Source: Clostridia bacterium
GTDB lineage: Bacteria; Bacillota; Clostridia; Oscillospirales; CAG-272
Direction of reading: 5' to 3'
Assembly: GCA_017407835.1 (NCBI GenBank)
Contig: JAFQVV010000006.1
Location: 5,809-69,808, forward strand
DNA length: 64,000 nt
The notes below the pieces were generated by a model. The model searched no databases. It saw nothing but the letters and a program-made list of their open reading frames with translations, and was not told the origin of the DNA. This document shows, one piece after another, positions 20,058 through 25,322 of this stretch. A program made the position numbers and the translations under genes. Positions within the stretch are counted from its first letter, which is position 1. Every line of letters starts with the position of its first letter.

Positions 20058-20086
20058 TTGACAAAGCGGACGGGCTGTGCTATAAT
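20058..20086 (+). promoter_or_regulatory. Sigma-A promoter of rplJL
   Basis: TTGACA-17 bp-TATAAT with TG extension. Confidence 0.85.
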
Positions 20087-20097
20087 AGCCCTGTTAA

Positions 20098-20230
20098 TCC
20101 TAAGACAGCAGGTTCCCGTAAAAGCGGCGACGCTTTCCTGCCGAGGTGCGACCCCTTTTCATGACAAATATCATGTGTGGTCTTTCCTCGGAGGCGGTGT
20201 GCCGTCACGGGAGAAAGATTTTTTTATGCT
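20098..20230 (+). promoter_or_regulatory. Ribosomal protein L10 leader
   Basis: TAAGACAGCAGG...CCTGCCGAGG motif, followed by a U-rich terminator-like segment, directly upstream of rplJ. Confidence 0.85.
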
Positions 20231-20256
20231 CATTTTCACAATCGGGAGGTGAAATC

Positions 20257-22124: not shown

Positions 22125-22201
22125 TTTTTGTTTATTTTCAACAAATTGAAGTCTGCAAATTATGCACTTAACCAAAATTTCGCACATCAATTGAAAAAGT
22201 G

Positions 22202-22230
22202 TTGACAAATCGATCACTGTCTGTTATACT
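22202..22230 (+). promoter_or_regulatory. Sigma-A promoter driving an ORF-less repeat unit
   Basis: TTGACA(22202)-17 bp-TATACT(22225) with TG extended -10. Confidence 0.85.
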
Positions 22231-22236
22231 GAAATC

Positions 22237-22605
22237 GGAAAGCAGGAAGGCATCAAAGGGATGCACCCAAAGGCTTCCGTACGAAAGGAGAAGGCACACC
22301 GATGGGCCATCACAACTGACTAAACACGTTCCGTTGACATAGATGGAAGACGTACCGCCACATGATTGCGCGAAAGGAGAAGGCACGCCAATGGGCCACG
22401 ACGAGTAAGACGAATCATCGATCGCCTCATCGCCTACCCCGATGGAAGTTCCACCCGCTGTGCGAAAGGAGAAGGCACGCCAATGTACCGGTTCATTGTT
22501 CGGCTATGATAGCCGATAAGCCAGTTGTTTTTTCACAGAAACTTTCACTTACCTCCTTAACATATTTGTGGGGGCTGTTGCAAATGCAACAGCCCCCACA
22601 AAAAA
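22237..22605 (+). ncRNA. Candidate small RNA (or mini-ORF array) with three conserved repeats
   Basis: Strong promoter; repeats CGAAAGGAGAAGGCAC(A/G)CC(G/A)ATG at 22282, 22371 and 22463; anti-SD ACCTCCTT at 22551; 16-bp perfect stem at 22567-22602. Confidence 0.55.
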
Positions 22606-22719
22606 TCTCCAACAAGACCGCTTTTTTGAACTTCCGTAGGAATTTGATGCAAGATTTGATGGTTTTAGAACTTGCAAGGTCTCAAATATCGGTGGTCATA
22701 CCGCCAAATCAAACTCGAC

Positions 22720-22756
22720 GGGGTGTCGCGCTCATTTGCACGACACCCCCTTTTTC
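22720..22756 (+). terminator. Intrinsic terminator upstream of the cadC promoter
   Basis: GGGGTGTCG/CGACACCCC stem followed by CTTTTT. Confidence 0.7.
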
Positions 22757-22777
22757 ATGTATTTTTTCATTTTTCTC

Positions 22778-22826
22778 TTGACACAAAAGCAATTTCATGA
22801 TATCATATGAACAAATGAACATATGA
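22778..22826 (+). promoter_or_regulatory. cad operon promoter with overlapping ArsR/SmtB operator
   Basis: TTGACA-17 bp-TATCAT; imperfect inverted repeat TCATATGAACAAATGAACATATGA over the -10. Confidence 0.75.
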
Positions 22827-22838
22827 AAGGTTAAAAAC

Positions 22839-23198
22839 ATGAAAGAAAATACATGTCCCACAGACACCTATCTTTGCCTGACTCCCGAACGTGTGGCAGA
22901 TATTCTGGATGAAATGCCCCCCGATGAGCAGCTTTACGATCTCGCCGAACTTTTCAAAATTTTCGGCGATTCCACGCGGATTCGCATTCTGTATGCACTC
23001 TTTGAGGCGGAGATGTGCGTGGGTGATATCGCACAGCTGCTCGGACTTTCACAAACTGCCGTTTCCCATCAGCTGCGCGTACTGAAAATCAACAAGTTGG
23101 TCAAAGGGCGAAAGGAAGGCAAAATTGTCTTTTACGCCCTCGCCGATGAGCATGTCCGCCGTATCATCGATCAGGGCATGGAACATATCGCCGAATAA
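22839..23198 (+). CDS. cadC: ArsR/SmtB-family metal-sensing repressor
   Basis: LAELFKIFGDSTRIRIL, EMCVGDIA, SHQLRVL and LADEHV motifs. Confidence 0.88.
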   Translation: MKENTCPTDTYLCLTPERVADILDEMPPDEQLYDLAELFKIFGDSTRIRILYALFEAEMCVGDIAQLLGLSQTAVSHQLRVLKINKLVKGRKEGKIVFYALADEHVRRIIDQGMEHIAE

Positions 23199-23450: not shown

Positions 23451-25322
23451 ATGACCGGCAAGCAAAAGCGTACTTCGGCGAGAATTCTTCTCTCTGCTAT
23501 CCTCTTCGGCACAGCCATCATCCTGCCCCTGCAGGGCAATGCACGGTTGATTGTGTTTATTCTCCCCTACCTCATCATCGGCGCAGACGTGCTTTGGCAC
23601 GCGCTGTCCGGGATAGCCCATGCCCAAATTTTCGATGAAAATTTTCTCATGGCCCTTGCTACCATCGGTGCGCTCTGCATCGGCGAATATCCCGAAGCGG
23701 TCGCCGTCATGCTTTTTTATCAAGTCGGCGAATTTTTTCAGGATTATGCTGTGAACCGCTCCCGTCAATCAATCGCCGCACTGATGGATATTTGCCCCGA
23801 CAGCGCAAATTTGGAGAAAGACGGTGAACTGTTCTCTGTTTTACCCGATGCGGTCAATGTCGGGGATATTATCGTTGTCAAGCCGGGTGAGCGGATTCCT
23901 CTGGATGGCAGTATTGTCACAGGCAGCTCTTCGCTCAATACTGCGGCACTGACAGGGGAACCGCTTCCCCGCCCCGTCTCGGCAGGTGACGAGGTGTTCA
24001 GCGGCTCGATCAACGAAACCGGCTTGCTACGCATACAGGTCAGCCGACCGTTCGCCGATTCGACCGTCTCGCGCATTCTGGAGCTGGTCGAAAACGCCTC
24101 GGCAAACAAAGCAAAAGCCGAGCATTTCATCACACGTTTTGCACGCTGGTACACCCCCTGTGTCGTTGGTGCCGCCCTTCTGGTTGCGCTCATCCCCCCC
24201 CTCTGTTTGCGGGGGGATTGGCAGAAATGGCTCTATCAGGCACTGACCTTTTTGGTTGTTTCCTGCCCCTGCGCGCTGGTCATCTCGATCCCGCTCAGCT
24301 TTTTCGGCGGAATCGGGGGCGCGTCACGGCGAGGGATTCTCGTCAAGGGGGGCAATTATCTCGAAGCCTTGGCAGATGCCGAGACGGTGGTATTTGACAA
24401 AACCGGAACGCTGACCTCGGGTAACTTTCGTGTCACTGAAATTTGCCCCCTCCTGGACATTACCGCGCGTGATCTGCTCACCTATGCAGCGCTTGCTGAA
24501 ATTTATTCCGACCACCCCATTGCCCGCTCGCTGCGCGATGCGGCGGGTGAGCTTGACCGTACACGCGTTGACACTGTGCATGAAGAGGCGGGACTGGGTG
24601 TTCGGGCAATGGTAGACGGTACTCCCGTTGCGGCGGGCAGCCGACAGCTGATGGATGCCCTCTGCCTTACCGTTGATTCTTTCTCTGAAAACGGAAGCAC
24701 TGCCGTACATGTTGCCATTGACAACCAATACGCGGGATATATCATCATCGCCGATGAACCCAAACCCCATACCGCAGACACAATCGCCGCCCTGCGCAGG
24801 CTGGGTATTCGCCGAACCGTCATGCTGACCGGGGATCGCCCCGCGCGCGCGGCGCAAATCGCGGCATCGCTGGGATTGGATGACTACCGCGCCGAGCTTT
24901 TGCCTCACGATAAGGTTGCCTGTATCGAATCATTGCTCACCGAGCAAACAGGCGGGCGGCTGATTTTTGTCGGAGATGGGATCAACGATGCCCCTGCCCT
25001 CTCGCGCGCCGATATCGGCATTGCCATGGGCGGACTGGGGACAGATGCCGCCATTGAAGCCGCCGATCTGGTCATCATGGATGACAGCATCGCCAAGGTT
25101 GCCGAAGCCATTGCCATCGCTCGCCGCACAAGACGGATCGTTCGGCAAAACATCATTTTTGCCCTGTCGGTTAAGGGACTTGTGCTGCTGGCGGGATTGG
25201 TCGGAGCAGCGAATATGTGGTTTGCGGTCTTTGCCGATGTGGGTGTCGCCCTGCTTGCCGTGGTGAACGCCATGCGCTGCCTGCATACCGGCCATCCCGC
25301 ATCGGTCGAGCAGAAATCTTAA
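23451..25322 (+). CDS. cadA: Cd/Zn/Co-translocating P1B-type ATPase
   Basis: TGE, SCPCAL, DKTGT, HP and GDGINDAP motifs. Confidence 0.93.
   Translation: MTGKQKRTSARILLSAILFGTAIILPLQGNARLIVFILPYLIIGADVLWHALSGIAHAQIFDENFLMALATIGALCIGEYPEAVAVMLFYQVGEFFQDYAVNRSRQSIAALMDICPDSANLEKDGELFSVLPDAVNVGDIIVVKPGERIPLDGSIVTGSSSLNTAALTGEPLPRPVSAGDEVFSGSINETGLLRIQVSRPFADSTVSRILELVENASANKAKAEHFITRFARWYTPCVVGAALLVALIPPLCLRGDWQKWLYQALTFLVVSCPCALVISIPLSFFGGIGGASRRGILVKGGNYLEALADAETVVFDKTGTLTSGNFRVTEICPLLDITARDLLTYAALAEIYSDHPIARSLRDAAGELDRTRVDTVHEEAGLGVRAMVDGTPVAAGSRQLMDALCLTVDSFSENGSTAVHVAIDNQYAGYIIIADEPKPHTADTIAALRRLGIRRTVMLTGDRPARAAQIAASLGLDDYRAELLPHDKVACIESLLTEQTGGRLIFVGDGINDAPALSRADIGIAMGGLGTDAAIEAADLVIMDDSIAKVAEAIAIARRTRRIVRQNIIFALSVKGLVLLAGLVGAANMWFAVFADVGVALLAVVNAMRCLHTGHPASVEQKS

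Follow-up and report, generated by a model that had tools for sequence, protein, structure and literature searches.

In the STAB-SD leader of Bacillus thuringiensis cryIIIA and in the aprE leader of Bacillus subtilis, RNase J1 is blocked by ribosomes that bind without translating productively. Very short reading frames are known from minigenes, such as bar of phage lambda, and from mccA, which encodes the 7-codon precursor of microcin C, a very short translated frame carried by an abundant short transcript. Ribosomes that initiate at a strong Shine-Dalgarno (SD) sequence on the hbs mRNA of B. subtilis also block RNase J1 without productive translation (PMC5737220), and minigenes act via ribosome and peptidyl-tRNA traffic, an example being that of the Enterococcus axe-txe operon (PMC8708949).

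Like the SD 5' stabilisers, the RNA locus analysed here carries a strong SD (GAAAGGAG) near its 5' end behind a 5' hairpin; theirs, however, stand in the leaders of real genes, whereas no gene follows within the present RNA, and its SD is followed by an AUG and, almost at once, a stop, in a box repeated up to five times per RNA. As in minigenes, an SD and a start codon are followed by a stop after a few codons, two boxes of one relative (G006) being two-codon frames, but known minigenes are single and lie in operons or phage DNA, whereas those described here are arrayed on the chromosome, conserved, and served by a promoter and terminator of their own. With CsrB/RsmZ the locus shares the layout of a stand-alone RNA made of repeated purine-rich sites whose number varies among relatives, and it differs from them by the lack of CsrA and FliW in the genomes searched, the lack of GGA enrichment, the position of the sites outside hairpin loops and the spacing of the repeats (~90 nt vs 10-20 nt in CsrB/RsmZ). 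The resemblance to mccA lies in a very short frame on a short transcript and in four first-box peptides that end in Asn as MccA does, but these frames have 5 codons instead of 7 and give 5-residue peptides, no mccB-type enzyme (MccB-type adenylyltransferase) is encoded next to them, and the Asn is missing in two relatives (G004 and G005) and in the other boxes. In its way of working the RNA would come closest to the SD-type 5' stabilisers and the minigenes. It is a member neither of an Rfam family nor of the Csr/Rsm sponges, the CRISPR arrays or the mccA-type precursors, and a narrow literature search returned no description of an RNA of such design.

The locus very probably represents a real, selected RNA gene, which on comparative grounds appears to be genus-restricted, independently transcribed and part of a family outside Rfam. 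On the best reading, its working parts would comprise a short hairpin domain at the 5' end and at least one ribosome-loading box; because nothing but promoter, 5' hairpin and box is common to all seven genomes of the genus and the number of boxes varies, the boxes are the most likely working parts. The window, i.e. the whole 64,000-nt stretch of DNA analysed, belongs to a 2.07-Mb assembly that is 98% complete (G000), and G001 to G006 are relatives of the same genus. The features of the locus, in window positions, are the following:

22202..22230, plus strand: promoter (11/12 consensus matches, TG present, layout common to 7/7 genomes of the genus)
22236..22281, plus strand: 5' domain (covariation analysis; RNAalifold returns the helices P1 and P2)
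22282..22319, plus strand: box 1 and its mini-ORF (box 22282-22309; orthologous box in 7/7 genomes)
22326..22353, plus strand: inter-box hairpin (boxes 1/2), seen in MFE and centroid folds alike
22371..22408, plus strand: box 2 and its mini-ORF (box 22371-22398; ATG at 22391; aligns with box 4 of G006)
22463..22509, plus strand: box 3 and its mini-ORF (box 22463-22490; ATG at 22483; aligns with box 5 of G006)
22500..22516, plus strand: small hairpin TCGGCTA-TGA-TAGCCGA, found in the folds and not conserved in G006
22545..22559, plus strand: tail TCACTTACCTCCTTA, containing the anti-SD-like ACCTCCTTA
22570..22757, plus strand: dispersed repeat of ~187 nt, joined to the RNA at its 3' end in G000 only

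The unit opens with the near-perfect extended sigma-A promoter that had been predicted, composed of a -35 TTGACA (22202-22207), a 17-nt spacer, a TG (22222-22223) and a -10 TATACT (22225-22230). Since a scan for promoter-like sites found two where shuffles give 1.6, the weight of this promoter comes from its conservation in the seven genomes and not from the scan count. Transcription, which we infer from it, would start near 22236-22238. The description of a stand-alone, promoter-driven unit without a long ORF also held. No ORF of the stretch belongs to a Pfam family, neither a 139-aa frame at 22362-22781, which crosses the dispersed repeat, nor a 72-aa frame on the minus strand at 22168-22386. 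Both frames were rejected as coding genes, and so was a minus-strand reading of the locus, given that the conserved promoter, the G-U pairs of P2 and the terminators of the relatives all match the plus strand.

Within the 5' domain, P1 pairs 22236-22243 with 22273-22279, and P2 is a hairpin in which 22250-22254 pair with 22260-22264 around the loop AAAGG, with an extension at 22249/22266. P2 with its extension covaries: 96% of the cells are paired, both sides have changed in 5 of the 8 pairs, and the covariation score is reached by none of 500 shuffles, slid controls giving 0-1 double-change pairs, although these statistics are thin, with only ~6 distinct sequences. The G-U pairs of P2 fit the plus strand only. 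The sequences are only compatible with the pairing of P1, whose 5' strand never varies. Further downstream, the hairpin at 22326..22353 (ACGU-UCC ... GGA-AG-ACGU) holds the first GATGGAAG, and the corresponding stretch of G006, read by eye, can form GUGU/GCAC. The folding energy of 22236-22610 (z -3.8) is due to the 18-bp stem near its 3' end, without which z rises to -0.12 and 43 of 100 shuffles fold equally well, and the 273-nt RNA of G003 gives z = -0.54. The body of the RNA is therefore no more structured than shuffles and has the look of an mRNA.

The 28-nt box CGAAAGGAGAAGGCAC.CC.ATGGGCCA is present in three copies that start at 22282, 22371 and 22463, exactly where the original prediction had placed them with a spacing of 89 and 92 nt, and their identity to copy 1 is 100/93/82%. 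The window contains three copies of its 15-nt core for 0.10 expected, a count reached by none of 100 shuffles, and when up to one mismatch is allowed the core has four matches in the whole 2.07-Mb genome, the three boxes and one ordinary gene start on another contig. The three tiny ORFs were likewise read correctly. Box 1 has its SD, GAAAGGAG, at 22283-22290 and its ATG at 22302-22304, which opens the mini-ORF 22302-22319 (MGHHN, stop TGA); those of boxes 2 and 3 extend over 22391-22408 (MGHDE, stop TAA) and 22483-22509 (MYRFIVRL, stop TGA). The SD is complementary to 8 nt of the canonical Firmicute 16S tail, the 16S rRNA gene being absent from the G000 assembly and its anti-SD sequence thus taken as canonical. 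Most boxes leave the SD unpaired when folded locally, and the AUG is touched only by a weak hairpin (-1.6 to -5.5 kcal/mol), in which GGCAC pairs weakly with GGGCC, GGGCU, GUACC or GUACU around the AUG.

Selection on the boxes is visible both in their sequence and in the frames that they open. The identity of the box between G000 and its relatives ranges from 0.80 to 0.96, whereas the neighbouring SGNH gene is only 0.45 identical at its third codon positions (G000/G003); the boxes are under purifying selection and, with their SD and ATG, are the selected feature of the RNA. Across the seven first boxes GGCAC.CC.AUGGGC is invariant, and the spacer GGCACNCCR is more conserved than a plain ribosome site requires, which hints at a further binder or at the small hairpin. 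The SD-to-AUG distance is fixed at 11 nt, on the long side. In sequence, 12 of 12 boxes look like minigenes, with an SD and a start codon soon followed by a stop in the same frame: the ATG is kept in all of them, and the stop follows after 2-12 codons (mean 6.1), whereas the other two frames run on for 16.5 and 29.9 codons on average and the background chance of a stop within 12 codons at arbitrary positions in these RNAs is 0.43, the 12 ORFs being non-independent through box duplication and common descent and representing perhaps 7-8 independent events. This early-stop bias points to selection for immediate termination. The encoded peptides (MGHHN, MGHDE, MYRFIVRL, MGCQN, MG, MG, MYHNI, MYSFLLA, MGHEN, MGHTN and MGHTILTP(A/V)ICR) are not conserved as a set.

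The RNA occupies one place, in the order MFS-rplJ-rplL-(SGNH)-RNA, in the seven genomes of the genus, the SGNH gene being missing in G005. The repeat motif, which had been proposed for a search of related genomes, was indeed found in 7/7 of them, with a copy number of 1, 3 or 5: three boxes in G000, five in G002 and G006 (one of them degenerate), and a single box, followed by an unrelated non-coding 3' part, in G001, G003, G004 and G005. Delimited by its own terminators, the unit measures 273-626 nt in four relatives (273 nt in G003, 598-626 nt in G005/G004), that of G001 being cut by the contig end. The boxes of G006 are spaced by 86, 74, 169 and 82 nt, and its RNA can be aligned with that of G000 only at the 5' domain and box 1, at box 2 (box 4 of G006) with ~35 nt upstream of it, at box 3 (box 5 of G006) and at the short tail, while the spacers outside the boxes largely fail to align between species. 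The genes downstream of the RNA differ among the relatives and have their own promoters.

Beyond the genus, BLAST over 40 relatives retrieved the 5' part of the RNA in the six same-genus genomes and in no other genus; a match in G022 covers the promoter only, those in G010 and G019 correspond to a hairpin of the dispersed repeat, and all three were rejected as homologues. A covariance model of the 5' domain and first box (R1) gave no true match among 148-150 other genomes of the family and 150 of the order, three weak hits outside the genus all lying inside ORFs and being judged false. Pattern scans of genome contigs gave chance gene starts, mostly from Streptomyces, and otherwise only six loci, whose RNA sequences are identical to those of the genus relatives. 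One pattern scan of metagenomes returned 18 stretches, none of them homologous, and a scan of viral contigs gave no match.

Comparison with known classes supports the original view that no described RNA family can be recognised: the Rfam covariance scan gave no credible match in the window or the relatives. With Rfam 15, the region 22202-22800 had no hit at E<=1, and a threshold of E<=10 added only noise of the hairpin-like miRNA/sRNA kind, placed on the 18-bp stem and scoring at best 22 bits vs a cut-off of 37. Lacto-rpoB on a hairpin of the G005 RNA, the best match among the relatives, was a tempting candidate, as the locus follows rplL, but its 17.6 bits are insignificant against a 40-bit cut-off. 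A CRISPR array was rejected in view of the irregular spacing in G006 and of the flanks of boxes 2 and 3, which are conserved between G000 and G006, and the Rfam scan contained no CRISPR-DR match. Hence, of the proposal that the locus is either a processed repeat-spacer array or a polycistron of micro-peptides, the CRISPR-like half fell, whereas an array of mini-ORFs is still viable, every box having an ATG and a stop within 2-12 codons.

The 3' part of the unit in G000 differs from what had been described. The small hairpin at 22500-22516 and the anti-SD-like ACCTCCTTA at 22551-22559 are both present, but the anti-SD tract is not conserved: CACUUACCUC of the tail is common to G006, CUCC is not, and both G002 and G006 have ACCUCAUAA. 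The tract is absent from the single-box forms. The stem predicted to be a perfect 16-bp one at 22567-22602 is there too, but it has 18 bp (22565-22602) and is followed on the plus strand by an A-run and not by a T-run, so that it is not a canonical terminator. The unit does not simply end at 22605, as had been supposed, since this stem is the left end of the dispersed ~187-nt repeat (22570-22757), the right hairpin of which (22720-22749) is followed by a T-run and is likely the terminator of the unit. The transcript of G000 would end at 22602 (~370 nt) or, more probably, in the T-run after 22749 (~520 nt). Four relatives without the element (G006, G003, G005 and G004) have ordinary hairpin-plus-T-run terminators, hence the dispersed repeat replaced the original terminator in G000, and on this comparison the 3' stem is not part of the ancestral RNA. 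Consequently, the proposal that the RNA titrates ribosomes or proteins, its 3' anti-SD masking its own SD repeats, survives in its ribosome-titrating half only, the tract not being conserved and the adjacent stem being a mobile repeat.

A second full copy of the repeat lies on another contig of G000 (C17, 18054-18241; 75% over 190 nt) and has compensatory changes in three internal hairpins. The genome has another 20 matches of lesser length, most of which fall on the right hairpin; this hairpin with its T-run is apparently used as a terminator module elsewhere in G000, and G001 has at least nine long copies. The element is bounded by two GC-rich hairpins, which are mutual inverted repeats (I2, 17 nt, 76% complementary). 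Several dispersed copies with inverted-repeat ends, as in MITE-like elements, characterise 22570-22757 only, and this repeat has no match in Rfam. This hairpin-ended dispersed repeat may be flagged as a supplier of terminators in the genus.

We tentatively read the RNA as a ribosome-loaded minigene RNA, the most plausible of the interpretations weighed, if less likely than not. Each box would offer an unpaired 8-nt SD with an AUG placed 11 nt further on, whose frame closes after 2-12 codons; ribosomes would load on every box and translate the minimal frame, and the bound ribosome and the 5' hairpin would shield the weakly structured RNA from 5'-to-3' decay, in a way that may be likened to strong SD elements in Firmicute mRNAs. 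The abundance of the RNA would then depend on translation capacity and, the function being carried by the boxes and not by the variable spacers, the copy number (1, 3, 5) would set the dose. Counted against ribosome loading are the 11-nt SD-AUG spacing and the over-conserved GGCACNCCR spacer. Moreover, titration of ribosomes by a small RNA is quantitatively hard, so that the benefit to the cell is unexplained under this reading. It is improbable that the boxes form instead a trans-acting array of decoy initiation sites capturing initiating ribosomes, initiator tRNA or a putative ribosome-site-binding regulator; such an array would be a strongly transcribed pseudo-mRNA setting global translation in a lineage without CsrA and Hfq, and would constitute a new class of regulatory RNA.

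Several other readings were weighed against ribosome loading. A rather unlikely one, which nevertheless accounts for part of the data, makes the RNA a decoy or sponge for a putative factor that recognises ribosome-site-like RNA, be it a C/U-rich antisense sRNA or some RNA-binding protein distinct from CsrA and Hfq, with one site per box and a capacity set by the copy number. The variable number of boxes, their conservation beyond the SD and AUG in the seven first boxes, the small hairpin that can hold the AUG and the otherwise unstructured RNA would all fit, but the extended box is found on no other mRNA of the G000 genome, has no extended complementary (antisense) partner beyond chance 11-mers, and this reading leaves the uniformly early in-frame stops unexplained, in addition to the missing regulators: Hfq was not found in the one genome searched (G000, 98% complete), nor was FliW (PF02623), and CsrA (PF02599) was found in none of the seven genomes of the genus, the same search recovering it in the controls E. 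coli, B. subtilis and T. maritima. The search for csrA/fliW co-occurrence, suggested with the original prediction, has therefore found neither gene, which bears most directly on its CsrB/RsmZ-like sponge. The boxes and 5' loops are purine-rich and contain GGA, but the eight GGA triplets that were to serve as ANGGA sites are not above chance (8 observed vs 6.1 expected at 22237-22564, P=0.24, mononucleotide shuffles), the counts stand at chance level in five of five RNAs (P of 0.20 in G006, 0.87 in G005, 0.74 in G004 and 0.56 in G003), and Rfam gives no Csr/Rsm match; a CsrA sponge is thus exceedingly unlikely.

The RNA could also act by base-pairing or protein binding through its invariant 5' end or its hairpin, the boxes being accessory stabilisers that arose by neutral tandem duplication. 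The first 12 nt, AAUCGGAAAGCA, are identical in the seven genomes while the 3' strand of P1 varies, and the loop of P2 is purine-rich and semi-conserved; we consider this reading unlikely, since part of the 5' invariance may stem from the promoter or start site, of the five complementary sites found with up to one mismatch (~2.5 expected) one is this very locus and no site coincides with an evident gene start, and selection on the internal boxes in two lineages would not be explained. That the tiny ORFs encode functional micropeptides, for instance M-G-(H/C)-x-N from the first box, is less probable still. The first-box product is MGHHN, MGCQN, MGHEN or MGHTN in four lineages, with synonymous pairs at codons 3 (CAT/CAC) and 5 (AAC/AAT) and a shared TGA. 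To our knowledge, five residues are below any ribosomal peptide product that can be named. Genes for 7-codon peptides do exist, mccA being an example (PMC4231749, PMC6495379), but the first box of G004/G005 gives MGHTILTP(A/V)ICR, the other boxes give MG (twice), MGHDE, MYHNI, MYSFLLA and MYRFIVRL without a common peptide, and no modifying enzyme is a conserved neighbour (GDSL/SGNH, ArsR and a P-type ATPase in G000, with different downstream genes in the relatives). Finally, a non-functional remnant, in which a lost gene has left its promoter, leader and start and slippage has produced duplications, would agree with the highly variable 3' parts, the lack of a conserved ORF and the landing of a mobile repeat in the locus; it is very unlikely, as species with near-saturated synonymous sites have all retained the promoter, the compensated hairpin and the boxes, and each lineage has kept a proper terminator.

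If the boxes do load ribosomes, the locus would be a natural RNA gene built of translation-initiation sites and making no protein. Such loading, which we infer here together with the stabilising effect and any action on other molecules, would bear on how small RNAs are stabilised or used in Gram-positive bacteria without Hfq or CsrA, on whether minigenes play a chromosomal role and on the tuning of RNA dose by tandem duplication. The reach of these considerations is narrow, the family being known from seven uncultured gut Clostridia species of one genus and from sequence alone; it is a candidate new family for Rfam.

In the surroundings of the locus, a separate near-consensus promoter (22778-22806) precedes the genes of an ArsR-family regulator (22839-23198) and a P-type ATPase (23451-25322). 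The ATPase gene has a ribosome site, GAAAGGAGGCACGCT-ATG, that resembles the box of the RNA; the only orthologue of the ATPase (G004, 58% identity) has a different site, and this likeness was set aside as probably a coincidence. In G005 (L009 1590-2110) and G004 (L011 ~1590-2135), a ~520-nt non-coding stretch with 75% mutual identity, absent from the other 39 of the 41 genomes searched, comes after the promoter, 5' hairpin and single box. It has neither a shared ORF nor an Rfam match and, having no shared ORF, was rejected as a pseudogene; it is possibly a larger structured RNA. The single-box forms (L009 ~1965-1995 and the equivalents in L011, L110 and L109) also have a hairpin with the conserved loop GGYUGAAA(A), the stem of which appears, by eye, to covary, and Rfam offers for it only the weak resemblance to Lacto-rpoB given above. 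On the other side of the locus, rpoB does not follow rplL in the RNA-bearing genus, and an L10 leader (RF00557) precedes rplJ-rplL at 20081-20233 with 37.7 bits, just below the gathering score of 44, which its G005 orthologue passes at 48.9 bits.
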